Shown here piece by piece: positions 13,854 to 41,497 of a DNA stretch of 64,000 bases. This stretch comes from a virus. Lineage: Duplodnaviria; Caudoviricetes. The translations under genes and the position numbers were made by a program. The notes beneath the pieces were generated by a model, which worked only from the letters and a program-made list of their open reading frames with translations, searched no databases and was not told the origin of the DNA. The first letter of the stretch is position 1; the number at the start of each line of letters is the position of its first letter. The stretch covers positions 128,001-192,000 of IMG/VR virus record IMGVR_UViG_3300031420_000495. The stretch is one strand, 5' to 3'.

Positions 13854-14942
13854 TTACACCGCCATATCGAGTTTGATGGATTCTTGTGGATCGTAGTCAA
13901 CGAGTGCGTGGATGTCGTCCATGCGGAACCCGTCGATTTCGGTGATGCTCGTGTTCAGCGACAGCTTCGGCGGCATCGATGGAACGCGCTCGAGTTGTTG
14001 CTCTGCACCTTCCAGGTGATTCTTGTAGATGTGCGTGTCGCCCAGGTTCATGATGAGACGGCCGACAGACAGGTTGCAGACTTGCGCGAGCATGTGAGTC
14101 AGTAGAGCGTAGGACGCAATGTTGAACGGCAGACCGAGCATCGTGTCGATCGAACGCATGTACACGCTGCAGGACAGACGACCTTTCTCGACGAAGAACT
14201 GTGCCATCATATGGCAAGGTGGCAAAGCCATCTTGTCGATTTCACCGACGTTGAATGCGGTGATCAGCATCCGACGATCGGTTGGATTTTCTTTCAGTTT
14301 CTTGACCAGCTCGGCAACTTGGTCGACGGCCGAACGTTCGTAAACGTCCATGCTCATGATATTAGATTCAGCTTTGTTCAGCGTGTATTTCGGCCAGTGT
14401 CGCCATTGGAATCCGTAAATGTGACCAACGTGTCCTGGATAGTTTGCCTTTGGTTTCCAGTAGTCTGCATTCGCGTTATCGGTCCAGATTGTTTTCTTCG
14501 AATCATCGCGAGTCCCATGAAGTATTTCGCACAGGCGACGTTCATCGTCCGATCCTTCGAGGAACCAGATCAGTTCAGACTTGACGGCTTTCCACGCCAG
14601 CTTCTTCGTGGTGACTGCTGGAAAACCTTTCTGCAGGTCGATGTCCAGGTGCTTGCCGAAAATTGCACGGGTACCCACGCCGGTACGGTCGATGCGATCA
14701 TCGCCTTCTTCCAGGATTTCGCGGATGAGGTCGAGGTACTGCCATTCCCACGTATCGCTACGTGACTCGAACAGACCCGGCATTGCGGTTTCGAGCTGAT
14801 CGATCAGGCCGGCGAACATGTTGTTCAGTGCACTACCGTTGCCATGCTCACCTTCGCGAGCAGCGAAGGCAGCAGACAGTTCTTCGGCTTCTTGCATCGC
14901 AGCAATGGTTGTTTCATTCGGCACTTTGTTTTCTTCAGACAT
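13854..14942 (-). CDS. thyA: thymidylate synthase
   Basis: DRTGVGT, FPAVTTKK, ELIWFL, YGFQWR, LPPCH, RSIDTMLGLPFNIASY (Asn, dUMP-specific), GDTHIYKNH. Confidence 0.95.
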   Translation of the reverse strand: MSEENKVPNETTIAAMQEAEELSAAFAAREGEHGNGSALNNMFAGLIDQLETAMPGLFESRSDTWEWQYLDLIREILEEGDDRIDRTGVGTRAIFGKHLDIDLQKGFPAVTTKKLAWKAVKSELIWFLEGSDDERRLCEILHGTRDDSKKTIWTDNANADYWKPKANYPGHVGHIYGFQWRHWPKYTLNKAESNIMSMDVYERSAVDQVAELVKKLKENPTDRRMLITAFNVGEIDKMALPPCHMMAQFFVEKGRLSCSVYMRSIDTMLGLPFNIASYALLTHMLAQVCNLSVGRLIMNLGDTHIYKNHLEGAEQQLERVPSMPPKLSLNTSITEIDGFRMDDIHALVDYDPQESIKLDMAV

Positions 14943-26950: not shown

Positions 26951-27400
26951 TTATTTCGCTTCTTTTGCAGCTTGTGCGTCGATTACTCGTTGACGAAGTT
27001 CGCTTGTCGAGAAATCGTGTTTGCGGCTGTTGAAGTAAAACTGCATTGGAATGTCGTGACCAGTGAATTCCTTGCCTTCATACTCGTCACCCAAAATTCG
27101 GATGTCGATTGGATAAGCCAGCAGCACGTCGCGCAAGTCTTTCTCAGTTGCGTACACGACGACTTCATCCACGTACTTGCACGCTTCAAGTTGAATGAAG
27201 CGTTCGACGACAGATTGCACTGGCTTGTTTTTGTTTGGTCGGTCGATGGTTGGATCGGTCTGCAAACCGACAATGAGGTATTCACATTGTCGCTTCGCTT
27301 CCCGAAGCATCATTACGTGCCCCGCATGAAAGAGGTCAAAACACGATGCCGTAAATCCGGTCCTAACGTGTTCGGCGGGCTTTTCCGAGAGTTTTGCCAT
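26951..27400 (-). CDS. cytidylyltransferase-like nucleotidyltransferase (TagD/RfaE-C family)
   Basis: GFTASCFDLFHAGH (HxGH), LIVGLQTD, ER...ACKYVDEV, STSELR. Confidence 0.9.
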   Translation of the reverse strand: MAKLSEKPAEHVRTGFTASCFDLFHAGHVMMLREAKRQCEYLIVGLQTDPTIDRPNKNKPVQSVVERFIQLEACKYVDEVVVYATEKDLRDVLLAYPIDIRILGDEYEGKEFTGHDIPMQFYFNSRKHDFSTSELRQRVIDAQAAKEAK

Positions 27401-28023
27401 TTGATTCCTTCCTGAATCATGTTGATTGCTTTGTTGACATCATCGCCTGGAACTACAGCTTCCCAGACTTGCTTTGATTGCCACAGCCGTTCGTCGCCGG
27501 TGATCGACATCAAGCGGTCGCTGTGCGTCTTGACGATCTTCGCAATGCTTGCGTGCAGCTCTGCGAGTGTTTGACAGTCGAGCGCCTGCAAGTCCTGGGT
27601 GGTTCGTTCGTTGAGACGGTTGATCTTCGTCTTCTCTGGAACCGTCACGAACACCTTGAAGATGTCCCAGTTCTTGTCGCGGCAGTACTTGATGTACGAC
27701 TCGAGCCCTTGCGGTTCGAGGATGATGACCGGCGGCATGTTGCTGCGGTTTACTTTGTTTTCCATTTCGTCATGGGTCACGCCATAACGGTTACCGCGGA
27801 ACTCAGCGGTTTCGGCCAGTAGGCCTTCATGCTCGAGTCGATCAGCTTCTTCACGCGAGATGAAGTAGTAGTCGACGCCATGGACTTCGCCGGCACGCGG
27901 CTCACGAGTCGTGAAGCCGACGATACGATTCAGTCCGAGTTTTTCGAGATGTTCGATCAGATACGTCTTGCCCGAACATGTCGGTGCCGTAATCGTAATC
28001 AGTGTTGGATGGTTGAAGATCAT
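27313..28023 (-). CDS. guanylate kinase-like NMP kinase
   Basis: APTCSGKT P-loop, TTREPRAGEVHGVDYYF, FRGNRYG. Confidence 0.88.
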   Translation of the reverse strand: MIFNHPTLITITAPTCSGKTYLIEHLEKLGLNRIVGFTTREPRAGEVHGVDYYFISREEADRLEHEGLLAETAEFRGNRYGVTHDEMENKVNRSNMPPVIILEPQGLESYIKYCRDKNWDIFKVFVTVPEKTKINRLNERTTQDLQALDCQTLAELHASIAKIVKTHSDRLMSITGDERLWQSKQVWEAVVPGDDVNKAINMIQEGIKWQNSRKSPPNTLGPDLRHRVLTSFMRGT

Positions 28024-28853
28024 CGTTTGCCTTTATTGAAACCGTTCTCGAGTGAAAGCACGAGGTCGGTCATGTTCGCAGCATAGAAGCCGCACGAGTT
28101 GATGGTTCCGATTTCCACGACTTTCATTCCTTCTGGAGTCTCGCAGACGTCGAGGCACCACGCTTCATGTGGCATCCAACCATCGTTGGCCATGCTCAAT
28201 GTGATCGACGTTTGGTTGTTCTTCGTCTTCAGAATCATGTTGACGAAGCGGAACACGTGGTCATCTACATGAGGAGAATATATCACACGATCGCCGCGTT
28301 TATAAAGAGATTGCGTGACGATGCGATCTTTGACGATCCAGAAACGATACTCGGCGTAAATCTTCTTCGGCTTGCAGACTTGAATCAGCGTGTCCTTCGA
28401 CAGGCTCGTGCCGTCATCTTCTTCAAGTACGCAGACTTTCTTCTGCCACTCTTCGAACTCTGACTTGTCCATCACCGTACCTGCGAAGACTTTACTGTCT
28501 TCGATTGGACGGATGAACATGACATCTTCGGTGAAGACAGCATCTTCGAAACGGGAAACAACAGCATCAGCATTGAGCATGTACTGGCCCCAATGTTGCA
28601 TTTGCTTGTTGAAGTTCTGCGGTTCAAGATCGAATACGCCAGGACGCCAACCATTCTTTCTGGCAGCGTGACGCAATGAGTATGAACCCATGCAGATGAC
28701 GTTGTCGTCTTCAAGCACGGGTTCAGGTGTGATTTCGCCGATAAACGGGATCACTTTGTGAATCGAGTGCGGTATTTTGAACCGCACCAGAGTGTCAAGC
28801 AGCGTTTGGTACGCTGCTTCATTGAACAGATTGTCTTGGAGTATCCAGTGCAT
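28020..28853 (-). CDS. ATP-grasp protein (DUF4343/R2K-like)
   Basis: FIRP..DSKVFAG, EYRFWIV, CLDV, KVVEIGTINSCGFY. Confidence 0.8.
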   Translation of the reverse strand: MHWILQDNLFNEAAYQTLLDTLVRFKIPHSIHKVIPFIGEITPEPVLEDDNVICMGSYSLRHAARKNGWRPGVFDLEPQNFNKQMQHWGQYMLNADAVVSRFEDAVFTEDVMFIRPIEDSKVFAGTVMDKSEFEEWQKKVCVLEEDDGTSLSKDTLIQVCKPKKIYAEYRFWIVKDRIVTQSLYKRGDRVIYSPHVDDHVFRFVNMILKTKNNQTSITLSMANDGWMPHEAWCLDVCETPEGMKVVEIGTINSCGFYAANMTDLVLSLENGFNKGKR

Positions 28854-29266
28854 TATGCTTTCGCAGTCGTAGCGCGCGGACGCTTCGGCAGGACAACACC
28901 AGCGTCACGCATGTGGGCGGCATACCAACGCAGGCAGCCCACAGTGGTTTTGGCCGAAGGGAACTGATCCTTGACAGCGGCCAGGATTTCGTCGTACGAC
29001 AGGCCGGTCGCGCCATCAGCCTTGACCAGCAGGGCTTCAGCAACCGAGCGGATCGAGATTTTCTTCGGGGCGGTTTCTTTCACAACGATCTTGTTGCCGT
29101 TTTCGTCGAAGGTCTTGGCCAGGTCGATCTGCTTTTCAGCGGCGATCTTCATCAGACGCGCGACAGCTTTTGCGCGGGCGTTGAAGGTCTTGTTGGTAGC
29201 GGTGCCGCCCAGTGCGTTGATCATCGAAACCAGGGTAGCCATCGTGAAGTTGGTCAGGTTCGTCAT
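28853..29266 (-). CDS. basic early protein, possible HTH DNA-binding C-terminus
   Basis: Lys/Ala-rich; GLSYDEILAAVKDQFP..TT..CLRWY. Confidence 0.7.
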   Translation of the reverse strand: MTNLTNFTMATLVSMINALGGTATNKTFNARAKAVARLMKIAAEKQIDLAKTFDENGNKIVVKETAPKKISIRSVAEALLVKADGATGLSYDEILAAVKDQFPSAKTTVGCLRWYAAHMRDAGVVLPKRPRATTAKA

Positions 29267-29336
29267 TTTCGTTTACTCCGTAGTGTTTGTCGATGGATTC
29301 ATTATACATGAAACCCATTACGGAGCACAGTACTTT
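29264..29336 (-). repeat. promoter/leader cassette copy 1 (TGTGCT-N17-TATAAT)
   Basis: Near-identical to 42493-42566; shared 20-mer ttcattatacatgaaaccca. Confidence 0.85.
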
Positions 29337-29358
29337 GTGCAGGTATTTGAAAAATTTT

Positions 29359-29664
29359 TCAGATTTTCCAAATAGGCGACATCAAAATATTATCGATGGT
29401 CCATGCCGAATAATGCTTCTCGACAGGCGTGCCATTGACCTGCGTGTGCAGTTCAACGCTGTCACGATTTGCGAAGCCTTGAACACGTACCATCTCTTCG
29501 CCATTGACTGGGAAGTTTTCCGGAACAGCAAGAACGCCGCACACCATCATCAGCTTCATGCCTTTTGGCAAGTTATCCGGACGAGTATTCGTGTCGCGGA
29601 AGAACAGTTGACCAGTGACAAGAGGCTGTTGGCCTTCCATTGCCAATTCGATTAAGCGGCTCAT
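29359..29664 (-). CDS. hypothetical protein
   Basis: ORF between terminator and promoter. Confidence 0.6.
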   Translation of the reverse strand: MSRLIELAMEGQQPLVTGQLFFRDTNTRPDNLPKGMKLMMVCGVLAVPENFPVNGEEMVRVQGFANRDSVELHTQVNGTPVEKHYSAWTIDNILMSPIWKI

Positions 29665-29682
29665 AAGATTTCCGTAGATGTG

Positions 29683-29710
29683 AAAAGAGGATCATATCAG
29701 ATCCTCTTTT
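29683..29710. terminator. intrinsic terminator (bidirectional)
   Basis: aaaagaggatc-atatca-gatcctctttt. Confidence 0.8.
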
Positions 29711-29714
29711 TGTG

Positions 29715-29924
29715 TTACTGCTTTTCCGTGCGTTCAACGTGCTTCGCTGTCTCGATCATATCATCGAGCTTCCACGCAGAGTCTGTTAGCTTCACGGCAA
29801 TGCCGATGAAGTCAGATTCGTTTCGTGGAAACTGTTTCGCGTACTCATGCATTTTGTGATGCAGCGCGTAGAGTTGATCTTGAATCTCTGTCAGTTCTGT
29901 TGACGACGGATAAACATTACTCAT
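29715..29924 (-). CDS. hypothetical protein (69 aa)
   Basis: Coupled small ORF. Confidence 0.6.
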   Translation of the reverse strand: MSNVYPSSTELTEIQDQLYALHHKMHEYAKQFPRNESDFIGIAVKLTDSAWKLDDMIETAKHVERTEKQ

Positions 29925-30111
29925 TTGCTTCTTTCAGGTTGATGACTTCAACGAAGCTGTGACCGTCCAAACATGTGCCCACTGCTGGCGGCATTGGATC
30001 ACCTTTCAGGACGTACACAACTTGAGGATGCCGGCCATCGTGCGGAGTGCGAATGATCGCGTAATCCGCATCGATGTTACGTCCTGATTGTATCATCTCT
30101 TCGCGTGTCAT
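29917..30111 (-). CDS. hypothetical protein (64 aa)
   Basis: Coupled small ORF. Confidence 0.6.
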   Translation of the reverse strand: MTREEMIQSGRNIDADYAIIRTPHDGRHPQVVYVLKGDPMPPAVGTCLDGHSFVEVINLKEANE

Positions 30112-30326
30112 AGGAAAGCTTCTTTCGGGATTGCCGAAAGGAACTCAGGCAGATAGCCGACTTCCGATGTGTACTCGTACGAGACTTCGCGGGTCTCATA
30201 GCTTTCCAGGCCGAGGAAATAATCGCGCTTGACAGTGTGGTCTTGATTCACCAGTTCACCGTCGACGTACAATGCTTCCCAGTCATCGCAGTTTGTAACC
30301 AACACAGCTTTACGAGTTGTCATCAT
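30108..30326 (-). CDS. hypothetical protein
   Basis: DDWEALYVDGELV..H pattern common in phage small proteins. Confidence 0.6.
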   Translation of the reverse strand: MMTTRKAVLVTNCDDWEALYVDGELVNQDHTVKRDYFLGLESYETREVSYEYTSEVGYLPEFLSAIPKEAFL

Positions 30327-30531
30327 TCTTCCTTTGCAGTTCAGCGATTTTGTCATGTGCGTGGTTCCGCACTTTCGGATCGGGGTGAAGCAGCCGTTCT
30401 ACGTACTGCTGCCAGCTTCGGCAGAGCATGAAAGCTTCGTGAACGTTCTTGCATTCACCCTGGAGATTGTGCAGATTGTCTTGCACAATCCAACCGCCAT
30501 CAGCGGTTGGACGGAAGTGGAAACGCTTCAT
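30310..30531 (-). CDS. hypothetical protein (73 aa)
   Basis: Coupled small ORF. Confidence 0.6.
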   Translation of the reverse strand: MKRFHFRPTADGGWIVQDNLHNLQGECKNVHEAFMLCRSWQQYVERLLHPDPKVRNHAHDKIAELQRKNDDNS

Positions 30532-30815
30532 TTGTCTCGCGCCTCGTCAAGTGCTTTGATTTCGGCAGGAGACAAGTACACGCTGCGGTCCGTGCCCTTG
30601 ACCATTATGCAACGCTGGCCTTTGCGTGGACCTGCTTTCGCTTCTCGGAAGACTGCACCAGTAACTTCCATGATGCAGCTTTCGCGGTCATCCAAGTCAC
30701 CGAGCCAGCCGAACTTGTAAAACAGAAAGTGCTCAGGAAGATTCTTCGCCTTTGCTCTGGCAGCAACTGCCACGTCCCACTTTTGGGTATCTTCGAGAAG
30801 TTTTCCCTTATCCAT
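30528..30815 (-). CDS. hypothetical protein (95 aa)
   Basis: Coupled to glf stop. Confidence 0.65.
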   Translation of the reverse strand: MDKGKLLEDTQKWDVAVAARAKAKNLPEHFLFYKFGWLGDLDDRESCIMEVTGAVFREAKAGPRKGQRCIMVKGTDRSVYLSPAEIKALDEARDK

Positions 30816-32113
30816 TATTCCTCCGGTAATTCCTCACCGGCCAGGAACTTCCGAACGTAGGTGAGAGTCGAGTTGACACACGGAATCATGTCCGTGTAAA
30901 CATATCGACCGCAGCGACCGATGAAGTGGATTCCATCTGCCTTTGCGCGATCGCGGTACTTCTTATATAGTTCGCGGTTCGGATCGACGGCATGCGACGT
31001 CTTGACTGGGTAGTAACGCTCCATGTCGTTGTCTCGGTAATCGCACGGCTCTTCGACGGTCAGCGTCGTCCAGTAAGGATTGCCGCCGTGGGCCGGAAGC
31101 GATTTCCACTCGGTGATGCGGGTGTGTGGTCCGTCGTGTGTGAAGTTGACGACAGGAGCCGGCAAAGCTTTCGGGAGTGGGACGCTGTAGACGTGGCACT
31201 TGATCGAACGCCATGGGAGTTCGCCGAGGTCGCAGTTGTAGTAGGTGTCGATTGGTTCAGCAGTGAAGATTTCATCGAAATTTCCTTTCCATTCATCCGG
31301 CACATGAGTCAAATGACCACCGATTTTCATCGGGAACGTCGGCACAGTATCTGCGTTCAGAAGTTCTTCACGCGAGATATTCAACAGCACAGTGATGTTC
31401 GGGTGATCGAAAATCTTTTCGAACATCGCGGTGTAACCTTCAGCCGGCAAACACTGGTGCTTGTCTTTCGGGAAGTAATACTTGTCGTGATCCGTCTTCG
31501 TTGGAATGCGAGCAGCAACTGACGCAGGCAGGTCCGACAGGTCCATCTCCCACATCTTCTTCGTGTACGGCGCGAAGAAGAGTTCGGTCAGTTCTTTGCC
31601 GACCGACGACTCGACGTGTTCACGCGAGTTTGTGACATCTTCGGGCTTGATCTGTTCGCGCTTCATTTCCATGAAGGCTTCATACGCACGTGGCTTGTAG
31701 TAATAGCCATCGTCCATGTCTTCGTCTTGATAGCCCCAGTATTCTTGGGTTGCGTTCTTACCGCATTGCACGAAGTTACTGAACTCTTTGCCGAACACGT
31801 CACGGATTGTTTGCGCGTTGATCGGCAGCGGAGTGTACCGGCCATCAGGCAGCAGAGCTTGTACCCAGTGTTTGTACGGAACCCATTCAGTAAACTGCGA
31901 CGCCCATTCTTGGGCCATGTCGGAATTGCCGTGCCACAGGTGCGGGCCGTACTTGTGAACACGAATGCCGTGTTCATTGATGTAGTCGTATGCGTTACCA
32001 GCGATGTGATTGCGCTTGTCGATGACCAGCACTTTCCATCCAGCTTCTGCGAGTTCACGCGCGACTACGGCACCGGCAAAACCGGCGCCTACTACGAGAG
32101 CTCGTTTAGACAC
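30815..32113 (-). CDS. glf: UDP-galactopyranose mutase
   Basis: VVGAGFAGA FAD motif, IDKRNHIAGNAYD, VHKYGPHLWH, RYYPV, GRCGRYVYTDM. Confidence 0.92.
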   Translation of the reverse strand: MSKRALVVGAGFAGAVVARELAEAGWKVLVIDKRNHIAGNAYDYINEHGIRVHKYGPHLWHGNSDMAQEWASQFTEWVPYKHWVQALLPDGRYTPLPINAQTIRDVFGKEFSNFVQCGKNATQEYWGYQDEDMDDGYYYKPRAYEAFMEMKREQIKPEDVTNSREHVESSVGKELTELFFAPYTKKMWEMDLSDLPASVAARIPTKTDHDKYYFPKDKHQCLPAEGYTAMFEKIFDHPNITVLLNISREELLNADTVPTFPMKIGGHLTHVPDEWKGNFDEIFTAEPIDTYYNCDLGELPWRSIKCHVYSVPLPKALPAPVVNFTHDGPHTRITEWKSLPAHGGNPYWTTLTVEEPCDYRDNDMERYYPVKTSHAVDPNRELYKKYRDRAKADGIHFIGRCGRYVYTDMIPCVNSTLTYVRKFLAGEELPEE

Positions 32114-32339
32114 GGTAGTATTTCCTTTCGAATTCGTAATCGGACTTGATCAGGTACAGCACAGCTTCGATCATACCGACTACGCCCGGAATGCCTGTCC
32201 AGCAGAGGAGCAGGTATACAACACCTTGGAACGTTTGCCCAAGATAAAACTTGTGAAAGCCGAAGCTTCCCAAGAAGAAAGCCAATAAGGCCGCAACCAC
32301 ACGTGGCGTCATTTTAATCCTTCGTAAGCGCTCAAGCAC
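32106..32339 (-). CDS. TM2/NINE-domain membrane protein
   Basis: ALLAFFLGSFGFHKFYLG...LLLCWTGIPGVVGMIEA. Confidence 0.88.
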   Translation of the reverse strand: MLERLRRIKMTPRVVAALLAFFLGSFGFHKFYLGQTFQGVVYLLLCWTGIPGVVGMIEAVLYLIKSDYEFERKYYRV

Positions 32340-33151
32340 ATGGCGTCGAGGTCGTGTGTGAGCGAGATGTGTTTATATTGTTCCGGGCAGATGATTGACG
32401 CGACATCGCCCGGACGACGTGGAATGATTGTAACAGGGAAATCTTGGCCCGTCACTTTTTTCATCGCGTCGAGAACTTCCTTGACAGAATAACCCGTGCC
32501 AGAGCCGAGACATTCGTAAGGCGTATTTGCTGGACCGGCTCCGATTGCGTTCACGATCGAAGTTGCCAGGTCGCGTGCATCGATGTAGTCGCGCACACAT
32601 GTTCCGTCAGGAGTTTCCCAATCGTCACCAAACACTGGCACATCGATTGCAAGTCCTTTCGCTGCTCTTGCTGCGCGGCAAATCAGGTGCCGCGAGTGAG
32701 TCTCGCCAGAAACTTCTGGGCGTCGACCAGCGACATTGTAGAAGCGGAAGATCGTGTAGCCATCATCGAGTTGGAACTTGATTTCTTCTTCGCACGACCG
32801 TTTTGATTGTGCGAAGGCAGTGATCGGATTGAATGCTTCGCCAGTGGATGCAAAGATGAAGTGGGCGTTCTTGCGATGACGCAACATGCGTTTCGTTGCC
32901 TCAACATTATCTTGACCACTGACGTATGCACCGAGGTGGATGATGACGTCATAATCTTCTCGCAGGAACTCGAGTGCACCTTGCGACAGAATGTTTCCGT
33001 CGTATGCGGTGTTTGCTTTGTTGATGACCCAGTTGTGCGATGTGCCGAGAAACTTGTCGATGAAACACAAGTCGGTATAACCACGATCCAGCAACTCGAA
33101 TACCACATGAGACCCAATATAACCGGCAGCGCCGGTCAAAAGGATTTTCAT
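32309..33151 (-). CDS. GalE-like NAD-dependent epimerase/dehydratase, degenerate (YxxxK -> FxxxK)
   Basis: LLTGAAGYIGSH, FRFYNVAG, GTCVRDYI, RRPGD retained; catalytic Tyr replaced by Phe (TTC). Confidence 0.8.
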   Translation of the reverse strand: MKILLTGAAGYIGSHVVFELLDRGYTDLCFIDKFLGTSHNWVINKANTAYDGNILSQGALEFLREDYDVIIHLGAYVSGQDNVEATKRMLRHRKNAHFIFASTGEAFNPITAFAQSKRSCEEEIKFQLDDGYTIFRFYNVAGRRPEVSGETHSRHLICRAARAAKGLAIDVPVFGDDWETPDGTCVRDYIDARDLATSIVNAIGAGPANTPYECLGSGTGYSVKEVLDAMKKVTGQDFPVTIIPRRPGDVASIICPEQYKHISLTHDLDAMCLSAYEGLK

Positions 33152-33633
33152 GTTGGTTCCCAGTCGAGGAGTGGTTGGTCGCCTTTCACATAGAGAGGGT
33201 GACGTGGGGAACCGTTCTTCGTGGTGCCTAAACATTTTAGTTTTGTTCCGTTTGCTTTGAGAACTTCAGCGGCATGTTGCACGCGGTCAGCACGAGCATT
33301 CGTGCCCCATGCGCAGACGACTTCAGGACACTTGGACGCGATCTTCGCAAGCCACATGTCGTTTTCAGGACCGACTGGATCGGTACACTTCCAGAGTTCT
33401 TCTGGCTTGGTTGCGCGCAATGCGTACAGGTTGACGACGACGATGCCGCCATACCCGAACTTCTCTGCAAAGCTGAGGCAACGGCGGATTGTTGGATCAT
33501 CGATCTTGTCATCAGCCGTGCTTGGGTTGAGCATGATGAATGGCAACTGGTTCAGTTCACCACGCAACAAGAAGTAGCGGTATGCACCGCAATCGCTGAT
33601 GACGGCAGATTTCATGGTTGGATTGAGTACCAT
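33148..33633 (-). CDS. DUF1643 family protein
   Basis: FIMLNPSTAD..DDPTIRRC, VNLYALRAT, AWG, PRHPLY. Confidence 0.88.
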   Translation of the reverse strand: MVLNPTMKSAVISDCGAYRYFLLRGELNQLPFIMLNPSTADDKIDDPTIRRCLSFAEKFGYGGIVVVNLYALRATKPEELWKCTDPVGPENDMWLAKIASKCPEVVCAWGTNARADRVQHAAEVLKANGTKLKCLGTTKNGSPRHPLYVKGDQPLLDWEPT

Positions 33634-33827
33634 GCGGTACAGTCAAGTTTCAGAAGATTTATCTTATCACGTAATTCTTCATCGTCATGGACATACAAGA
33701 ACTTGTCGCGAAGTAACTTGTGATCTGGATCAACGTGATGATAGATAAACGTCAAATACCCAAGATGCTGACAGAGCAGCAACTTGAGTTTTGCATCATC
33801 AGGCGAACTGATGGCAACGACTTTCAT
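33612..33827 (-). CDS. hypothetical protein (71 aa)
   Basis: Coupled ORF. Confidence 0.55.
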   Translation of the reverse strand: MKVVAISSPDDAKLKLLLCQHLGYLTFIYHHVDPDHKLLRDKFLYVHDDEELRDKINLLKLDCTAWYSIQP

Positions 33828-34240
33828 TCCACGAGTTTGTCGTTGAAGTAGATTTCGACGTCGAACTTGTCGCCGGAGTCATCGTAGAACACCAGGTCGA
33901 AGCCCTGCAGTGCAGCTGCAACACCGTCGCATGTGATGTCGCCTTCGTAGAAGTCGTCGGCCCAACCTTCGGCAAGCTTATAGGCATCTTCGATGCCCTG
34001 TGCTTCGTATACAGGCGCGATGGTTTCTGTGGCTTCATCGAAGTCTGCGCCGAACTTGGTCATCGTGATGATCGCGAGAATATCGTTCTTCAGCAGCTCG
34101 AGATGTTCTGGGCTGTCGTCGTATTGATGTTCTTTTGAAGTATAGCCATCAGCATCGCCGTGCATATAGTGTGCAGCCAGTACGTACTGATTGCGGATCA
34201 GCGCAGGGTCGTGCTTGAATTTGAATTGAATGTCAATCAT
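33824..34240 (-). CDS. hypothetical protein, paralog of next gene
   Basis: Shares YxLxAxYMHGDxxG and xYDxxGxKxxxxx with 34233-34673. Confidence 0.75.
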   Translation of the reverse strand: MIDIQFKFKHDPALIRNQYVLAAHYMHGDADGYTSKEHQYDDSPEHLELLKNDILAIITMTKFGADFDEATETIAPVYEAQGIEDAYKLAEGWADDFYEGDITCDGVAAALQGFDLVFYDDSGDKFDVEIYFNDKLVE

Positions 34241-34673
34241 TGATTGGTTTCCCGTTTACTTTCACGTTCATGCTGTACTTGACACCCATTTCGTCGTACA
34301 GAAACACGTTGACATCTCGCAATGTCGCTGCGTATTCGTAACTGTTGTCGGTGTCATCATCAACCACGAACTCTTCGATGAATGCTTCGACGTCGTCTTC
34401 GACCCAGTGAAAGTTGTTGTGCTCCGCGAAAAACTCGCGGACCCGTTCTTTCGCGTCTTCAGTCGTTATTCCGAACCGACCTGCTGGCAACGTCTTCATG
34501 AAGGCAAGGCCTTCAAGATCGAAGTTCAGGCTGGCGATGTCGTCGCGCAAATACGAACTGGTAACGACCGAACTTCCGTTCATGTCGCCATGCATGTACT
34601 GGGCTTCGAGTTGATACATGTTCTTGTATTCCGGAACTGCGATTCGACTTCCGTGTCTGATTTCGACTGTCAT
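34233..34673 (-). CDS. hypothetical protein, paralog of previous gene
   Basis: YQLEAQYMHGDMNG...LYDEMGVKY. Confidence 0.75.
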   Translation of the reverse strand: MTVEIRHGSRIAVPEYKNMYQLEAQYMHGDMNGSSVVTSSYLRDDIASLNFDLEGLAFMKTLPAGRFGITTEDAKERVREFFAEHNNFHWVEDDVEAFIEEFVVDDDTDNSYEYAATLRDVNVFLYDEMGVKYSMNVKVNGKPIND

Positions 34674-35257
34674 GCCAGTGCCTCTTTCAGGATGTCGGCC
34701 GCATCGCGGAACTGGCCGGTAGTCGGATCGGTTACGCAGATGATGCGCTTATCACGGATGATCGACTTGTTGAACGCGGCGATGAAGCGATCTTGTTCAG
34801 CTTCGCGCTTCGTGTCGTCGAAGCTGTCACCATCCGAAACGAAGTGCTGCGATGACGCGAAGTCTTCTGTCAGCAGAATCAGACGAACCATGCTGGTCTC
34901 GTCAATGCCGAAACGCTTTTCCAGATCGAAGACATAGTTGCCATCGTACTTGCGGTACAGCGGTGCGTATACGGCTTCACCCAAGTGCCAGCGATCGAAG
35001 ATGATGCGTGCACCGGATTGGGAAAGCTTCATCGAGTTACGGAAGCACGCTTGCTGATAGTGGAAGAGTTCGGGGTAACAGTTGTCTCGATCGTGGGCAA
35101 TGTCGTCCGGCATGATCGAGTACTTGTATTTCTCAAGACGTTGTGGTTTGCCGAAGTGGATGACCTGGAAAAAACCCAGCTCGCGCTGGATTCCTTCCAC
35201 AAGAGTAGACTTGCCTAACCGGTCAAGTCCTTCAATTGCGTAGACGAACTTGCTCAT
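34670..35257 (-). CDS. thymidylate-kinase-like dNMP kinase
   Basis: AIEGLDRLGKST P-loop, IIFDRWHLGEAVY. Confidence 0.85.
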   Translation of the reverse strand: MSKFVYAIEGLDRLGKSTLVEGIQRELGFFQVIHFGKPQRLEKYKYSIMPDDIAHDRDNCYPELFHYQQACFRNSMKLSQSGARIIFDRWHLGEAVYAPLYRKYDGNYVFDLEKRFGIDETSMVRLILLTEDFASSQHFVSDGDSFDDTKREAEQDRFIAAFNKSIIRDKRIICVTDPTTGQFRDAADILKEALA

Positions 35258-35544
35258 ACTTCGATGCAGATGTCCGAGTTGTGATACTCGGCCACTGGAT
35301 TGCCACGGTTGTCTTCGATGGTGATGCTGAAGTCGACGGCTTCGGATGCTTCTTGAATGAAGCTATCGCCGAACAAGTCGTCCATGACGCCAACGAGTTC
35401 GAATGCGGCGTCCTTGTATGTACCATCGCCGAGACGGGTGTTGTACAACATGGCGCCGATGTATTGCAGTTGCTCGAGCGTCATCTTGACGAGGAAGTCA
35501 CCTTGGCCAACTGGCATGTCTTCTGGGCGGGAGATAATTTTCAT
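35254..35544 (-). CDS. hypothetical protein (96 aa)
   Basis: Coupled ORF. Confidence 0.65.
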   Translation of the reverse strand: MKIISRPEDMPVGQGDFLVKMTLEQLQYIGAMLYNTRLGDGTYKDAAFELVGVMDDLFGDSFIQEASEAVDFSITIEDNRGNPVAEYHNSDICIEV

Positions 35545-36677
35545 GAGGTAAATCCGATCGGTCGTTTGCGACGGAAAGTGTCGCTTGGTTGTTGAGAAAA
35601 TATTTCAGCGAGGCTGATCAAAGTTTTGTTTGGGGGTATTGAACCGGCACCTGCCTCGTCGATAACTGCTTGCGCTTCGTCGACGGTCAGAGGGCGAAAT
35701 TGTACCACATCGAAGCAACGCCCCGGGCGCATCAAAGCCGCGTCGATGTCGTTGATGTTCGGAAGGTTGGTCGAGAAGATGAGCTTCTTGTCGGCCGCCG
35801 AGATGAGACCATCCGAAACGTTGAGGAACTTGTGCATCATCGTGTTGCCTTCCTCGCGCGATTGGAGGAACGCGTCAGCGTCTTCCATCACGAGGAAGCG
35901 CGTGTCATCGTCGATGAAACCGGCGAACAGCCCGTCATCGTTCATGACCTTTTCGTCGTATGCGACTTTTGCATCGCCACCGCTGCGGTGGATGATGTTC
36001 TTGATGAAGGTGGTTTTGCCGAGACCTGGTGGTCCGATGAGAATCAGAACGCTGGCGTCCGAGTTCAGATAGTTGTCGATGTAGTCATCGAGGTCGCCCT
36101 TGATCCATGGGTACGCAGCACGGATTGCTTTGCGGTAGTTCAGCGGAACGCTGATGCTGTGCCCGTTGCTGGAGTACACCCACTCGATCAGGTTCTCAGC
36201 ACGGGAGAACTGGGCATCGAGTTTCGCGATCCACGCCTTGACCCATTTCGGATCGCCGACGTGTTCGACTTCCATCTTGCCGCGACCTGCGGTCATCTTA
36301 ATGATGCCGTCTTCGCATTGGATGAGAACGCGATTTGCGCTCAGGAAAGTGAAGCTGTGATTGGTATTGTCCATCACCCATTCAGCGAGTGCGAACGATG
36401 CGGGCACGAGCCAAGTCACGTCGACTTGAACAGTGCTGATGCCTGCGAGGTGGCGAGTGCGAATGAGGTCCGCGAAAATCCAGTCTTCGGTACCATATAC
36501 ACCGAGCATCACTTCATTGCGTTGGAGACCTTCTTCGCCGGCCATCAGGTGGGTGTCATCCATAGTCGATGGGCTTTGATGCGGGTACGATTGCGGCATG
36601 CGTGATTTCCTTACTGTTTTACGGGCGAGTCTTATTTCTCGACGATATGAGTCGGTGGACAGTGGTGTCGTTGACAT
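35541..36677 (-). CDS. AAA+ ATPase
   Basis: GPPGLGKT Walker A, LVMEDAD Walker B, STN sensor, DAALMRPGRCFD; true start may be about 36563. Confidence 0.9.
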   Translation of the reverse strand: MSTTPLSTDSYRREIRLARKTVRKSRMPQSYPHQSPSTMDDTHLMAGEEGLQRNEVMLGVYGTEDWIFADLIRTRHLAGISTVQVDVTWLVPASFALAEWVMDNTNHSFTFLSANRVLIQCEDGIIKMTAGRGKMEVEHVGDPKWVKAWIAKLDAQFSRAENLIEWVYSSNGHSISVPLNYRKAIRAAYPWIKGDLDDYIDNYLNSDASVLILIGPPGLGKTTFIKNIIHRSGGDAKVAYDEKVMNDDGLFAGFIDDDTRFLVMEDADAFLQSREEGNTMMHKFLNVSDGLISAADKKLIFSTNLPNINDIDAALMRPGRCFDVVQFRPLTVDEAQAVIDEAGAGSIPPNKTLISLAEIFSQQPSDTFRRKRPIGFTS

Positions 36678-36752
36678 AGTGTTCTGTGTGATTCGATAGA
36701 GGCATTATAGCTTAAATTCATACCACTATCGAATCGAACTTCGCGTTGAAGG

Positions 36753-38498
36753 TTATTCGCTCAACTGGGATGAAAACGAAATTGCGAATTCATCTTTCCA
36801 TTCATTGTCTTTCGACGTGAATGACCGTTGCGCGGCCGTGTCCAGAATGTACGTTACTGCGTGGTCTTCTTTCGAACGCACAGAACGTCCAGCACCCTGC
36901 ACAACTTTCTGCAGAGCCATCAAGCCGTAAATGTCCGGATAGCTGTCGAGAATAACCTTGATGCGCTTGTCTCCAAGCGAAGCGAAAGGCATCTTCACAA
37001 CGATCTGATAACGGCTCAGATCACCCGGCAAGTCGACGCCTTCAAATCCCGACGGTGTCAGAAGCACAGCTGGTCCGCCGGTATACGATTTGAATCGCTC
37101 CAACCAATCAGCCAACTTCTCCCCGCGGCAGTGTTCGAACACCTTGTATCCGCCTTTCATCAGGCGGAGTGTTTCAGCAATCGATTCTACCACAGCAAAC
37201 GACGGGCACAAGATAATACCACGATCGCCGAGTTTCGTGTGGTGATCGACGATTTGGTACGTCGTCGCGCACAGCTTCTTGATGGTATCAGGATTCTGCA
37301 TGGTGCTGTAGTTCAACGCCTGCGGCTTGAAGAAGATAACCTTCTTGTTCTCCTTCGGGAACTGCGGAGCCAGACGAATGTGCTTCGTGGTTCCCGGCAA
37401 AGCCATCGTGCGCTTCGCGTACAGCTCGCTGATCGTTGCGGACATCAGCAGGTTGTGGTCGGCATTGTCCAGCGCTTCGAACATTTCTCCAATGAAGATC
37501 GGCTTGACGCTGACTTCATTTTCGTTCTGTCCTTTCTTAGGGTCCTTCGGCTTGTATTCAAACACCGATGGATATTCGAAGAGGAACAGGTCGTCGATCT
37601 TGCAACCGAGACTGTGATACTTCTTGGAAAGTTTCGACAGCTTCAGGAACTTGGCTTGCGAACGAACATTCCGCTCTGCATCTTTCTTTGCTGCTTCCGA
37701 AATCTGCATGTACGTTGCCAACAGAATTCGCAGATACTTTTGATGATTGGCTTCATTGATCCGGCCGTCAATCAAGTGGTCGCGAACGGTCTTCAGGTTT
37801 TTGAAGACGTCTGTGTTTCCGAGTGACAACTCAGCCGACACTTCTTCGGCCATTGTCTTCAATCTTTTCTCTGAGAAATAGATTGCGTTGTGTTCGGTAA
37901 ACAGATCATTCAGCAAGTGCGCTTCGTCGAATACGCAGACGGCACGCTTCGGCATCGGAGCTTGCGAATACATTCGGTCAACGAAGTAGTATGCATAGTT
38001 GGTAATCAACTGACGCGTCTTCGGTTTCATCGACCGTGCATGCTGGAACTCGCAGCCATTGCAGTGAGTCTGGATCATGTCGTCCATGCCAGACTTCTGG
38101 AAAATCCGCAGTGCACAGTGTTCTGCCGACTGCGGTTCTTCAGCTGTCGAAAGAGCGGAACACTCGTAGTTGTTCGCGCCCTTGATGACATTGAAGTTTT
38201 CGGTTGGATTCGATTCGTCAATGAACGAATCGGAATACTGATCCAGCAACGCGTTCGTTGCCGTCAGAATAAAGCTGGCTCCAGGATACTCTGTTGGATA
38301 TTTGATCGTCTGCACGACATCGGCCACGACTGCACCGATGATCGATTTACCAGTTCCGGTCGGAGCGGACAGGACCACGTTGCGATAGCCTTCGTCCAGG
38401 AAAGCCACCAACACTTGGTTGATGTGCTCGACCTGGCTATCACGCGGTTCATATCCGATTCGCTTGTACGACTCAAGGATTTGTTTTTCGTATCGCAT
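36753..38498 (-). CDS. DinG/XPD-like SF2 helicase
   Basis: APTGTGKS, DEAH, LMSAT, EGVDLPGD, IVVKMPF, QGAGRSVRS; several Cys (possible metal cluster). Confidence 0.88.
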   Translation of the reverse strand: MRYEKQILESYKRIGYEPRDSQVEHINQVLVAFLDEGYRNVVLSAPTGTGKSIIGAVVADVVQTIKYPTEYPGASFILTATNALLDQYSDSFIDESNPTENFNVIKGANNYECSALSTAEEPQSAEHCALRIFQKSGMDDMIQTHCNGCEFQHARSMKPKTRQLITNYAYYFVDRMYSQAPMPKRAVCVFDEAHLLNDLFTEHNAIYFSEKRLKTMAEEVSAELSLGNTDVFKNLKTVRDHLIDGRINEANHQKYLRILLATYMQISEAAKKDAERNVRSQAKFLKLSKLSKKYHSLGCKIDDLFLFEYPSVFEYKPKDPKKGQNENEVSVKPIFIGEMFEALDNADHNLLMSATISELYAKRTMALPGTTKHIRLAPQFPKENKKVIFFKPQALNYSTMQNPDTIKKLCATTYQIVDHHTKLGDRGIILCPSFAVVESIAETLRLMKGGYKVFEHCRGEKLADWLERFKSYTGGPAVLLTPSGFEGVDLPGDLSRYQIVVKMPFASLGDKRIKVILDSYPDIYGLMALQKVVQGAGRSVRSKEDHAVTYILDTAAQRSFTSKDNEWKDEFAISFSSQLSE

Positions 38499-38500
38499 TA

Positions 38501-39478
38501 TTATTCGTTATCAGGTACGGCAAACAGCTTGTGCATCGCGTCCTCGTCCTTCATGAACAGGGCCTTGATGAGAGTTTGCCAGTACGGAGTCAGTTCGTTG
38601 AACTCGAAGAAATCAAAGTTGAAATCTTCAGCGAAGTTCGCTTCGCGGAGTTCTTGTTCGACACAGAGGAGATGCTGACGGATTTCATCGTCGAAACGAT
38701 CCATCGGAATCATTGTCAGGTCGAAAGCATTCTCGGCCGCCATGATGTTGTTGGCCATCTCGAAGTGACGGTCATACACGTGCATCGATCCAGCATTGTG
38801 GAAGTAATGGCCGAGTTGCAGTTCCGGATAGGTTTCACGGAGCTGAAGCATCAGGCATTCTTGCAGCATTGTAAACTGGAAGACGTCATTCGTGAAACCG
38901 AGAATGATGTCGTTCGATCGCATGTTGGTAATCATGTGCAGCTTGTCTTCGCGAATGAAGAACTGCAGCGTGAGTGTGCAGGCAACGTCTTTGTTTCCGT
39001 CGTGGCGATCGCTCGGCACGTGGATATTCATGATTGCCTGACGGGAATCTCGATCCTTCTTCAGGAGTTCGATTGTCTCGGCCCACTGGTCGATTGGTTC
39101 ACCAGCTTCGTTTTTCGTGAATGCAGGTAGGCCCGAGAATCCGAAGAGACGCGTTCCATAGTTCGAATTGATTGTACCAGCTTCGTAGTTCTTGTGTGAA
39201 CCAGAATTCGTGATGTTCGCCCAGAACTTCGAGTATGGCAGGATTCCTTCAGGTTTCGATGAAGCGCTCAGGTACCAGATGAATTCGCCCAGCAAATATC
39301 GGGTGTTAACATTCCGTTCTGGGAATGTGATGACACGGTTCCGCGGATCGATCAGCGTGATGTTGTAGTTCAGCAACTCACGGGTTTCAGTGCCACGAGG
39401 TTTCGCAACCATGCCGTGGGTCATCAAATGTGCCAGGCATGTGCGAAAATCGTTATTCAGGTGTCCAGTTTGATCCAT
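38501..39478 (-). CDS. thymidylate-synthase-family enzyme, probable dCMP hydroxymethylase (T4 gp42-like)
   Basis: GEFIWYLS, SRQA, catalytic ACT, MRSNDIILGFTNDVF with Asp at the pyrimidine-specificity position, GSMHVYDRH. Confidence 0.8.
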   Translation of the reverse strand: MDQTGHLNNDFRTCLAHLMTHGMVAKPRGTETRELLNYNITLIDPRNRVITFPERNVNTRYLLGEFIWYLSASSKPEGILPYSKFWANITNSGSHKNYEAGTINSNYGTRLFGFSGLPAFTKNEAGEPIDQWAETIELLKKDRDSRQAIMNIHVPSDRHDGNKDVACTLTLQFFIREDKLHMITNMRSNDIILGFTNDVFQFTMLQECLMLQLRETYPELQLGHYFHNAGSMHVYDRHFEMANNIMAAENAFDLTMIPMDRFDDEIRQHLLCVEQELREANFAEDFNFDFFEFNELTPYWQTLIKALFMKDEDAMHKLFAVPDNE

Positions 39479-39577: not shown

Positions 39578-41497
39578 ATGCTCAAAAATCTTACCGGCGG
39601 AGCCATCATCAATTACGGCTCCACGCTCCCATCAGCAAGCACTTCATTTGACGGTGCCCTGTTCTACAAGACCGGCGCGGACCAAGGTCTTTACGTATTT
39701 GGTTTCATCCAGGACGCAAATCCGGATGCCATCGGCGACCAGTCAGCACAGGGCTGGAGTATTGTTCAATCGCCGGGATTGTACGTAGACATTGCCGGCG
39801 ACACGATGACCGGAGACCTCAGGCTCGCAACCGACGGCTTGACGATCTTCTCCAACAATTTCAGTGCCACAACGTTGACGTCACCAATGACGTTCGCCAC
39901 GAACGATCAATTCAAATGGACTACGTCTGGTGTCAATGCTAAAGATTTGATGCGTCTCACGAACGCATCCGCGCTGACGCTGAATGTCAATTCCAACTGG
40001 GAAACTGTTTGGCATAGTGGAAATGACGGTGTTGGTTCCGGTCTGGATGCCGACAAACTGGACGGTCAGGATTCTACATATTTCCGCAATGCATCAAACA
40101 TCAACACTGGCACACTCGATGTTTCGCGTCTTCCATTTACCCCTGTTCAACAGGGCGGTGGAACAGGCCAACTCTCGAATAAGGTTTACATCGGCTGGGC
40201 AAACGGCGGTCAACTGTACCTGCAGATTGATTCGACAAACTTCGCCAACGTATGGCCGATCAGCATCACCGGTAATGCTGCGACCGCAAATTACGCAACA
40301 TCGACTGGTGCTTCAACCAATTCGACAAATGCGGTTTCATCCCAATACGTTCGTCAAGACGGTTCCGCAAACGGAATCAACATGGCGTTCAATACGTCAT
40401 CTGCTGGCAACGGTATGCCTGCACGTGTTTGGGGTACAAACGATACGACCAACTTCGCGACTTGGAATGCATACAACCCAGCAACGTTTGCAGTCGCAAG
40501 TGCCACGATTGCTTCGAAAGCATCGACTCTTATTCTCGGTGGTGGAACCGGTGCAGGCTCAACATTCAACTGGTCTGGACAATCTGGTCAACCAACATGG
40601 GTATGGGGCGGTAATGACGGAACAAATATGTATGTTTACAATCCGTCGAATTTCTCTGTTGCCAGCGCAGCGAGCCTTGCGAACTTCACGGTCGGTGGTC
40701 GTTCAGGAACTGACTTCAATGCTTATCGTACCAGCGGTATGTACGCGGCAGATGGTTCTCCGGCAAATGCGCCTAATGCGTACGGATCGCTGATTGTAGC
40801 TTCGAACTCTGACGTTGGTTTGCAGATTGGCGGCGGTTATAATTCTGACAACCTCTTCTTCCGCGGATGGTGGAGTTCTGGTGCTAGCTTTGGGCCATGG
40901 CGCACAGTCATTCACAATGGCAATATTGGTTCTCAGTCTGTCAGCTACGCAAACTCTGCAGGTTCGGCAGGAACAGCCGGCACAGCAAATGCGCTGATTG
41001 CAAATCCAACTCTGTCTGGAACTGTAACGGCAGGTCGATACATTGGTGGTGGCGGATCAGCAGCCGCGCCCGCATTTACACTTGCAGAATCCGCAAACGA
41101 TACTGGTCTATATTCTGGTGGCGATGGTTATCTCAACTTTGCAACCAACGGTGGTTATGCTGGTCAGATTCAGCCTGGTGGTCATCTGGTTATGGCTGGC
41201 AACGTTACAGCATATTCCGACGTTCGTTTGAAGGAAAACATCGAACTGATTCCGCAGGCTCTGCAGAAAGTTCAACAGCTGCGCGGTGTTACATTCGATC
41301 GCATCGATACGAAAGAACGCGGTACAGGTGTTATCGCGCAGGAAGTTCAAGAAATTCTACCAGAAGCAGTCGTTGAATCCGAAGGCAAGTTGTCAGTTGC
41401 CTACGGTAACATGGTTGGCTTGCTGATTGAATCGATCAAGGAGCTGAATGCAAAAGTTGAATCTTTGCAAAGCGAAATTGCTGAATTGAAGAAGTAA
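39578..41497 (+). CDS. tail fibre A with C-terminal S74 intramolecular chaperone
   Basis: SGLDADKLDG, GNVTAYSDVRLKENI...LRGVTF...GVIAQEV...VAYGNMVGLLIESIKEL. Confidence 0.9.
   Translation: MLKNLTGGAIINYGSTLPSASTSFDGALFYKTGADQGLYVFGFIQDANPDAIGDQSAQGWSIVQSPGLYVDIAGDTMTGDLRLATDGLTIFSNNFSATTLTSPMTFATNDQFKWTTSGVNAKDLMRLTNASALTLNVNSNWETVWHSGNDGVGSGLDADKLDGQDSTYFRNASNINTGTLDVSRLPFTPVQQGGGTGQLSNKVYIGWANGGQLYLQIDSTNFANVWPISITGNAATANYATSTGASTNSTNAVSSQYVRQDGSANGINMAFNTSSAGNGMPARVWGTNDTTNFATWNAYNPATFAVASATIASKASTLILGGGTGAGSTFNWSGQSGQPTWVWGGNDGTNMYVYNPSNFSVASAASLANFTVGGRSGTDFNAYRTSGMYAADGSPANAPNAYGSLIVASNSDVGLQIGGGYNSDNLFFRGWWSSGASFGPWRTVIHNGNIGSQSVSYANSAGSAGTAGTANALIANPTLSGTVTAGRYIGGGGSAAAPAFTLAESANDTGLYSGGDGYLNFATNGGYAGQIQPGGHLVMAGNVTAYSDVRLKENIELIPQALQKVQQLRGVTFDRIDTKERGTGVIAQEVQEILPEAVVESEGKLSVAYGNMVGLLIESIKELNAKVESLQSEIAELKK

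Follow-up and report, generated by a model that had tools for sequence, protein, structure and literature searches.

The window analysed here is a stretch of 64,000 nucleotides, bases 128001-192000 of the 257,406-bp IMG/VR record IMGVR_UViG_3300031420_000495 (hereafter G000), which comes from an uncultured T4-like jumbo phage. Between positions 26951 and 39478 of the window lies a run of minus-strand genes (Table 1). It begins with a paralog of thymidylate synthase (TS), followed by a DinG/XPD-like helicase, an AAA ATPase, the small open reading frame (ORF) orf96 and a kinase resembling thymidylate kinase (Tmk), and ends with a guanylate-kinase-like (Gmk-like) kinase and a cytidylyltransferase-like nucleotidyltransferase. 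Between the two kinases are a short-chain dehydrogenase/reductase (SDR) resembling GalE and glf, which encodes a homolog of UDP-galactopyranose mutase (UGM). An initial annotation had named six of these genes (TS paralog, both kinases, SDR, glf and cytidylyltransferase) as a candidate pathway putting galactofuranose (Galf) or arabinofuranose on hydroxymethyl- or hydroxycytosine; searches with Pfam, PHROG and NCBIfam found all six to be real, correctly placed and co-oriented. We read the locus as a predicted hydroxymethylcytosine (hmC) core joined to the donor half of a glycosylation cassette from which the step of a transferase, here called X, is missing, with DNA that most likely bears hmC. 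This reading is given about an even chance.

Searches of G000 cover the 257 kb of the IMG/VR record. The public ENA contig k141_1209711 of ERZ27247433, a separate deposit of 375,421 bp with matching local gene order, encodes an identical Glf; its coordinates equal the IMG/VR coordinates plus 14,622. G000 is collinear from its first kilobases with G001, a relative of 349,660 bp that is 97% complete. The tag "provirus" attached to G000 in IMG/VR is probably a trimming artefact, as the record is a piece (offset 14,622) of the 375-kb contig and is collinear with a 350-kb genome. Whole genomes were compared among six phages (G000 and G001 to G005), and the related loci comprise 20 viral loci with the TS paralog. 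Cultured phages gave no megablast match to the 12.5-kb region at the DNA level.

The TS paralog was aligned with the phage's own ThyA, T4 gp42 and RB69 gp48, and residues were numbered as in E. coli ThyA. The catalytic cysteine (C146) is kept, with a DVACT motif that aligns with T4 gp42 and ThyA, and Asp residues occupy positions 143, 169 and 177, which is the pattern of T4 gp42. Asp143 sits three residues before the catalytic cysteine in the TS paralog, T4 gp42 and the cytidine monophosphate (CMP) hydroxymethylase MilA. At position 177, GFTND in the paralog resembles GFRND in T4 gp42, where the phage's own ThyA has PFN; this ThyA carries Asn at 177 and Leu at 143. An Asp instead of Asn at position 177 confers cytosine specificity. 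At position 169, MRSND in the paralog contrasts with MRSQN (Asn169) in RB69 gp48 and OLIVR5, and Asp169 is kept by the paralog and all its relatives. Asn169 marks 5-hydroxy-dCMP synthases, and an acidic residue at 143 admits water, which leads to the hydroxymethyl product (Lee et al., PMC13326640). Since the three-Asp pattern of gp42 is present with Asp169 and not Asn169, the product is predicted to be 5-hydroxymethyl-dCMP rather than 5-hydroxy-dCMP, and the paralog to be a 5-hydroxymethyl-dCMP synthase of the T4 gp42 type. The proposal of an Asp-type cytosine enzyme was thus borne out by residues 143, 169 and 177 and can be narrowed to the hydroxymethyl type, while its hydroxycytosine option is disfavoured by the retained Asp169.

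Two other chemistries were considered for this enzyme. The paralog could be a flavin-dependent 5-hydroxy-dCMP synthase like those of RB69, DLP3 and RL38J1, with sugars ether-linked to 5-hydroxycytosine; in RL38J1 a synthase of this kind occurs alongside Glf and a Tmk-like kinase, and these synthases also match MilA best in structure searches. However, the diagnostic Asn169 is absent from the paralog and from all its relatives, which keep Asp like T4 gp42, and in sister phages this TS is accompanied by a homolog of the T4 DNA beta-glucosyltransferase (beta-GT), an enzyme specific for 5-hydroxymethylcytosine (5hmC), so that this route is highly improbable. An enzyme acting on CMP as MilA does, or on a non-DNA substrate, in a locus that makes a small-molecule nucleoside, is barely credible. 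MilA is indeed the best solved relative by sequence (1e-28, versus 1e-17 for the T4 dCMP hydroxymethylase), but its higher score comes largely from a longer C-terminal alignment, the phage is of lytic type and has the gene in a conserved replication block, with deoxynucleoside monophosphate (dNMP) kinases alongside, and in relatives the same gene cluster holds a DNA beta-glucosyltransferase homolog.

The order TS-helicase-Tmk is kept in all 20 related loci where they are long enough. The AAA ATPase and orf96 are kept too, except in the most distant relative (L026), in which neither was detected, and orf96 was undetected in a few others; the Gmk-like kinase follows a few kilobases further on in most. 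This grouping of genes is not due to chance, because nearly every locus of sufficient length retains the TS-helicase-AAA-orf96-Tmk block. The interval between the Tmk-like and Gmk-like genes of the relatives holds one gene of about 385 aa, from either of two unrelated families. Eight loci (the beta-GT class) have a full-length homolog of T4 beta-GT in this slot (PF09198 at 47-92 bits in the three scanned; profile versus PDB 1BGT, 2e-51). Six loci, five of them distinct (L023 duplicates L022), have X there, always with glf (the X-glf class), and the beta-GT homolog and X plus glf never occur in one relative.

The same division runs through the six genomes. The beta-GT homolog is present in G003, G004 and G005, which lack glf, X, the cytidylyltransferase and the SDR. 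It is absent from the other three: G001 has glf, X and the cytidylyltransferase without the SDR, G002 has all four, and G000 has glf, the cytidylyltransferase and the SDR without X. The beta-GT genomes hold homologs of the RB69 arabinose-5-phosphate isomerase and kinase/nucleotidyltransferase, and the glf genomes do not; the sugar-donor modules therefore alternate at the DNA-modification locus. A homolog of the arabinose kinase/UDP-arabinose pyrophosphorylase is found at the same beta-GT-class loci (G003, G004 and G005). In these sisters, the combination of a gp42-type TS, a beta-GT and arabinose genes hints at arabinosyl-hydroxymethylcytosine, which would be distinct from the arabinosyl-5-hydroxycytosine of RB69. 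The arabinose-donor genes were located at L072:15099-17684 (G004:C1:55099-57684), G003:C1:296867-299954 and G005:C1:230361-232944, with the isomerase 48-51% identical to that of RB69.

X has no Pfam match. An AlphaFold model built from five close sequences was unusable (pLDDT 49). A library-wide profile search then supplied X relatives (502 representatives), and a second model, from an 85-sequence alignment, reached a pLDDT of 92. The six best Foldseek matches of this model in the PDB were all T4 beta-glucosyltransferase (E about 1e-7, TM 0.53-0.62), further matches were other GT-B enzymes including the T4 alpha-glucosyltransferase, and a protein-language-model look-up pointed the same way, to a T4 beta-GT-like glycosyltransferase. 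The link was found by fold search only: hhalign of X against the beta-GT profile gave a probability <1%, and the X profile found nothing among PDB sequences. As modelled, X is a GT-B glycosyltransferase with the T4 beta-GT fold.

The pairing of X with glf extends well beyond these jumbo phages. X adjoins glf in cultured phages (the Aeromonas phage 25 group, Stenotrophomonas IME13, Erwinia FBB1 and phage C48C1), and Aeromonas phage 25 and FBB1 each carry a canonical td gene and a gp42-type TS paralog (MRSND...ND). A set of 18 unrelated IMG/VR contigs, with Glf only 36-46% identical to that of G000, was also inspected; X abuts glf in 14 of them, and two more contigs begin at glf. Enzymes of cytosine modification lie within a few kilobases of glf in this set, namely a gp42-type TS (six contigs), a dCMP deaminase (six), a TET/JBP dioxygenase (five) and a C5-cytosine methyltransferase (four), together with an SDR epimerase (13 contigs) and a cytidylyltransferase 52-63% identical to that of G000 (10 contigs). 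The co-occurrence of glf with Asp-type TS homologs, which the initial annotation had proposed as a check, is seen in 6/18 contigs, and TET/JBP stands near glf in 5/18. Some X-Glf contigs have a C5-cytosine DNA methyltransferase as well as a gp42-type TS beside glf (L130:8957-10180, L141:10185-11372 and L142 from ~10137), so that a single cluster unites two routes of cytosine modification.

Two independent 5hmC routes joined to one cassette are hard to explain unless X and Glf act on 5hmC in DNA. From this gene context, glf is assigned to a predicted cassette for glycosylation of DNA hydroxymethylcytosine, and the glf gene family is by far best read as a route to a furanose donor directed at DNA. 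The suspected link between the sugar genes and cytosine modification thus holds for the family, in which sister and unrelated phages combine hmC-forming enzymes with an X of beta-GT fold. The sugar genes (Glf, SDR, cytidylyltransferase and the two glycosyltransferases GT1 and GT2 described below) could instead decorate virion proteins or host surface glycans, as the products of Glf are classically found in O-antigens and cell walls. This is quite unlikely, as glf swaps with a homolog of the T4 DNA beta-glucosyltransferase at the same position in sisters, and its proximity to gp42-type TS, TET/JBP, C5-methyltransferase and dCMP deaminase genes is a pattern without rationale for surface glycans.

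In G000 itself, neither the X hidden Markov model (HMM) nor a beta-GT HMM built from the eight sister homologs gave a match in the 257 kb. The gene order at the site is SDR-TM2 (68 aa)-glf in both deposits. In the closest relative with context, whose Glf is 80% identical, the order is SDR-64 aa-X (394 aa)-91 aa-glf, followed by R2K-Gmk-cytidylyltransferase as in G000. Blastn aligns the SDR and glf flanks, between which ~1.65 kb in the closest relative corresponds to ~205 bp in G000; the ~1.65 kb replaced by the TM2 gene is X plus two small ORFs. The TM2 ORF has no homolog among the small ORFs flanking X in that relative. Contigs of 16,122, 6,079 and 94,310 bp are common to the X and Glf match lists, a hint that X is retained in further near relatives. 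In the helicase tree, G000 is nested inside the X-glf lineages (support 97/98), and loss of X is therefore the parsimonious reading.

The donor genes that remain are intact and 70-80% identical to those of relatives. Glf aligns to positions 2-203 of 203 of PF03275, has an N-terminal FAD/NAD-binding domain (PF13450) and matches the D. radiodurans UGM (3HDQ) at 2e-67 over both halves, with the GAGFAG, YGPH, RxPT, YRS-type and YYPV motifs aligned. It looks functional, given that the FAD-binding and active-site motifs align with those of the D. radiodurans enzyme. Its TIGR00031 score (257.9 bits) is below the equivalog cut-off of 303.75 and it has an insertion of ~20 aa; its sugar nucleotide could differ from UDP-Gal. 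The distance from the TS paralog to glf is 6.4 kb, and the arrangement is alike in relatives. The SDR scored 151 bits against TIGR01179, below the equivalog cut-off, and probably starts at 33151 (280 aa), as in the gene call on the public contig.

The best PDB matches of the cytidylyltransferase are human ethanolamine-phosphate cytidylyltransferase (ECT, 2.5e-25) and TagD (2.8e-14), and the HxGH motif is present as FHAGH, in alignment with that of ECT and TagD. It resembles ethanolamine- and glycerol-phosphate cytidylyltransferases more than heptose-1-phosphate adenylyltransferase in sequence. Its ORF shares 88 nt with the 3' end of the Gmk-like gene. The public call starts 29 codons later, which would drop HxGH, and the start giving 149 aa is needed because this motif lies before the shorter called start; in the closest relative, a 151-aa cytidylyltransferase overlaps its Gmk-like gene by 43 nt. 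The gene is present in all assessable glf-class relatives and in 0/3 beta-GT-class genomes, and it also adjoins TS paralogs in phages without glf.

Other glycosyltransferases were sought across the record. The initial annotation had seen none in the window, which is correct, and the genome-wide check that it proposed found two GT4-type genes outside the window, GT1 and GT2 (Table 1); within the 257 kb it found no X, beta-GT, GT-A or dCTPase. The GT-A family PF00535 had no match in G000, and a search with the GT-A of G001 as query returned no match from the 375-kb contig among the best 120 matches. No TET homolog turned up in G000 either. G001, which is complete, has four glycosyltransferases. 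GT1 occurs in each of the three glf-class genomes and in G004 of the beta-GT class, and GT2 in both classes; neither tracks glf. Solved-structure searches gave no informative relatives for GT1 or GT2. Homologs of GT2 in cultured phages were found only in Ralstonia RSL1 and RsoM2USA, and the single homolog of GT1 lies on an unannotated gut-metagenome contig. In G003 the GT2 gene falls into two frames (G003:C1:44739-45787), and the GT1 match in G001 (G001:C1:188810-189934) has one in-frame TGA; these breaks may be frameshifts, sequencing errors or decay.

It is possible, at well below even chance, that the full pathway works in G000 and that UDP-Galf is moved to hmC by GT1, GT2 or a glycosyltransferase beyond the searched part, giving galactofuranosyl-hmC. 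The intact and well conserved Glf, SDR and cytidylyltransferase fit such a pathway, as do the presence of GT1 in all three glf-class genomes, the above-cut-off match of GT2 to PF20706, a GT4 family defined for conflict systems, and the four glycosyltransferases of G001, which suggest multi-step glycans. On the other hand, the presence of GT1 in G004, which has no glf, and of GT2 in all classes separates both from glf; the gene abutting glf is X wherever this can be assessed; and both enzymes are encoded away from the locus and are without a solved-structure or cultured-phage relative of known DNA activity.

Several points weigh against an hmC core left with a transferase-less donor module. The composition of the virion DNA is a prediction from genes. 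No dCTPase was found in the 257 kb (no T4 gp56 homolog and no match to MazG, PF03819), and full replacement of dC is unproven. The ~118 kb of the 375-kb contig beyond the searched 257 kb might hold X or another transferase, and GT1, found in all three glf-class genomes, could be a second user of Galf. The intact state of Glf, SDR and cytidylyltransferase argues for continued use and not decay, and MilA, a CMP enzyme, is a better-scoring match to the TS paralog than T4 gp42 is. An ORF at G000:C1:117609-118448 (-) (L147:610-1449) was considered as a MazG-ACP fusion and rejected, as Pfam shows only an acyl-carrier (PP-binding) domain.

The mechanism we favour, an hmC core with a truncated furanose module, has two layers. 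In the first, the gp42-type TS paralog would convert dCMP to 5-hydroxymethyl-dCMP, as its active-site residues imply, the Tmk-like and Gmk-like kinases would push dNMPs towards triphosphates, and hmC would enter DNA during replication. In the second, the GalE-like epimerase would convert UDP-Glc to UDP-Gal, Glf would convert UDP-Galp to UDP-Galf, and the cytidylyltransferase-like enzyme would make a further activated donor; X presumably puts the furanose on hmC in the DNA of sister and unrelated phages. In G000 a 68-aa TM2 gene stands in place of X, and the cassette's own transferase step appears to be missing. Its DNA most likely carries hmC, possibly glycosylated by the two GT4-type enzymes encoded elsewhere, and the Glf, SDR and cytidylyltransferase genes may be recent remnants, or another transferase may have taken them over. 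The pathway therefore looks truncated or rewired in G000.

From the sequence comparisons, the nucleotide half is well supported, and the furanose half has support at the level of the gene family but is unproven, and possibly broken, in G000. Galf on cytosine in DNA, as initially proposed, thus keeps its donor genes and hmC synthase but lacks X, which is absent from the syntenic site and from the 257 kb. A more specific proposal is that the base made by X and Glf is 5-(galactofuranosyl-oxymethyl)cytosine, a base new to DNA chemistry, which in phages with the conserved cytidylyltransferase would further carry glycerol- or ethanolamine-phosphate from a CDP-activated donor in the manner of teichoic acid, with the furanose moved in G000 by a recruited GT1 or GT2; this is speculative and unlikely to be right in full.

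The remaining genes of the region are also listed in Table 1. Homologs of the helicase (44-88% identity) come next after the TS paralog in almost all related loci, which makes it a conserved neighbour. The Tmk-like kinase is in every related locus long enough to show its position. RB69, DLP3 and RL38J1 also place a Tmk-like kinase beside the TS homolog. The Gmk-like kinase is common to the beta-GT and X-glf classes and is most simply a (d)GMP kinase, because it is core to all relatives whatever the sugar module; its initial listing with the candidate pathway genes is not supported. Among the small PHROG_8562 ORFs only orf146 has a homolog, a weak one, in G001. The DUF1643 gene is private to G000 among the six genomes, with no homolog in G001-G005, and no solved-structure relative of it was found. 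The R2K-clade ATP-grasp protein was tried as a pathway member and rejected, as its position is not conserved (it adjoins the locus only in G000 and the closest relative, lies at another site in G001 and is missing from the beta-GT class) and the family is predicted to be a protein/peptide ligase (PMC4431377); it is probably unrelated to DNA modification.

Table 1. Features of the locus, of its surroundings and of the wider record. Positions are those of the window except where G000 is given, which refers to the IMG/VR record.
Feature	Positions	Strand	Family matches and remarks
TS paralog, 325 aa, predicted 5-hydroxymethyl-dCMP synthase (T4 gp42 type)	38501..39478	-	PF00303 86 bits
DinG/XPD-like helicase	36753..38498	-	Helicase_C_2, ResIII, DEAD_2
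AAA ATPase, conserved block	35541..36677	-	PF00004 39.5 bits, PHROG_14322
orf96, 96 aa, core block	35254..35544	-	no Pfam family; homologs of 31-63% identity in most relatives
Tmk-like kinase, candidate hm-dCMP (dNMP) kinase	34670..35257	-	PF02223 21 bits (below cut-off), PHROG_761 3e-13
Two paralogous small ORFs, 138 and 146 aa	33824..34673	-	PHROG_8562
DUF1643 protein, between Tmk-like kinase and SDR	33148..33633	-	PF07799 144 bits
GalE-like SDR, candidate UDP-Glc/UDP-Gal 4-epimerase feeding Glf	32309..33235	-	PF01370 78 bits
TM2-domain small membrane ORF, 68 aa	32106..32339	-	PF05154 66 bits
Glf, UDP-galactopyranose mutase homolog, 432 aa, intact	30815..32113	-	PF03275 163 bits
Run of small orphan ORFs, 64-137 aa	28853..30815	-	no Pfam family; no homologs in G001-G005
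R2K-clade ATP-grasp protein	28020..28853	-	PF14243 56 bits
Gmk-like P-loop kinase	27313..28023	-	PF00625 64 bits, TIGR03263 80 bits (below cut-off)
Cytidylyltransferase-like nucleotidyltransferase, 149 aa	26951..27400	-	PF01467 60.4 bits (cut-off 21)
Canonical thymidylate synthase ThyA, outside the locus	13857..14741	-	PF00303 319 bits
Divergent 639-aa ORF adjoining the TS paralog	39578..41497	+	C-terminal Peptidase_S74 (endosialidase chaperone), typical of tail fibres/spikes
GT1, TuaH-like GT4	G000 203458-204609		Glyco_trans_1_4 39 bits
GT2, "GT4 in conflict systems"	G000 248127-249167		PF20706 29.9 bits, above cut-off

Glycosylation of hmC protects phage DNA against restriction enzymes and CRISPR nucleases, and the modified base is itself targeted by type IV restriction. 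The set of defences that a phage evades thus shifts with every new sugar. The comparisons above describe a portable cassette of a predicted T4-beta-GT-fold transferase and Glf, usually with an epimerase and often with a cytidylyltransferase, that attaches to either route to 5hmC, a gp42-type synthase or a methyltransferase plus TET, and that alternates in the sister jumbo phages with a module of beta-GT and arabinose-donor genes. Its core genes are in the cultured Aeromonas phage 25 group and Erwinia FBB1, where the predicted furanosyl-hmC is directly testable. G000 is a natural transferase-minus variant, in which it can be asked if the donor genes are kept despite the lack of X or if a different glycosyltransferase has stepped in.

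Glycosylated 5hmC (T-even phages and metagenomic TET clusters) and furanosylated 5-hydroxycytosine (RB69 and DLP3) are already established. The literature search found no paper that links Glf to hydroxymethylcytosine or describes the X family. The donor route, which the initial annotation had presented as apparently undescribed for phage DNA, has been proposed before: the one earlier proposal found of a phage Glf making UDP-Galf for DNA concerns the 5-hydroxycytosine of RL38J1, with other transferases (Lee et al., NAR 2026, PMC13326640).

The T-even system for glucosylation of hmC (gp42, gp1, gp56, alpha-GT and beta-GT) resembles the present locus in its gp42-type TS with the same three Asp residues and in the dNMP kinase(s) nearby. 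The beta-gt gene adjoins gene 42 in T4, the cluster of the sister jumbo phages includes a true beta-GT homolog, and T4 beta-GT is the closest solved fold to X of the glf class. It differs in that G000 has no alpha-GT, beta-GT or X homolog in 257 kb and no gp56-type dCTPase was found there, that the G000 kinases are Tmk-like and Gmk-like rather than gp1-like, and that the donor genes point to a furanose and not to UDP-glucose.

The metagenomic 5hmC glycan clusters combine a C5-methyltransferase, TET and a glycosyltransferase with an epimerase or cytidylyltransferase as partner, and one of them needs the cytidylyltransferase for heptosyl-5hmC (bioRxiv 10.1101/2023.12.21.572611). They share with the X-glf loci T4 beta-GT-like GT-B enzymes acting on 5hmC, some of which need a partner sugar epimerase, and X-Glf cassettes are also found beside TET and C5-methyltransferase genes. 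In contrast, no mutase or furanose is mentioned for those clusters (bioRxiv 10.1101/2023.12.21.572611), and the G000 cytidylyltransferase is more of the ethanolamine-/glycerol-phosphate type than a heptose-1-phosphate adenylyltransferase.

The galactosyl-5-hydroxycytosine system of RL38J1 and the Pootjesviridae likewise combines a TS homolog and a Tmk-like kinase with a Glf whose proposed product, UDP-Galf, would serve a DNA glycosyltransferase (PMC13326640). Its synthase has Asn169 (checked in OLIVR5) and makes 5-hydroxycytosine, whereas Asp169 in G000 predicts hydroxymethylcytosine; RL38J1, OLIVR5 and RB69 have no member of the X family. The arabinofuranosyl-5-hydroxycytosine system of RB69 and DLP3 is similar in placing a furanose on a C5-oxygenated cytosine and in clustering a Tmk-like kinase, a glycosyltransferase and a TS homolog. 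There an isomerase and a kinase/nucleotidyltransferase, and not Glf, produce the donor from arabinose-5-phosphate, and homologs of these arabinose-donor genes are found in the beta-GT-class sisters and not in G000.

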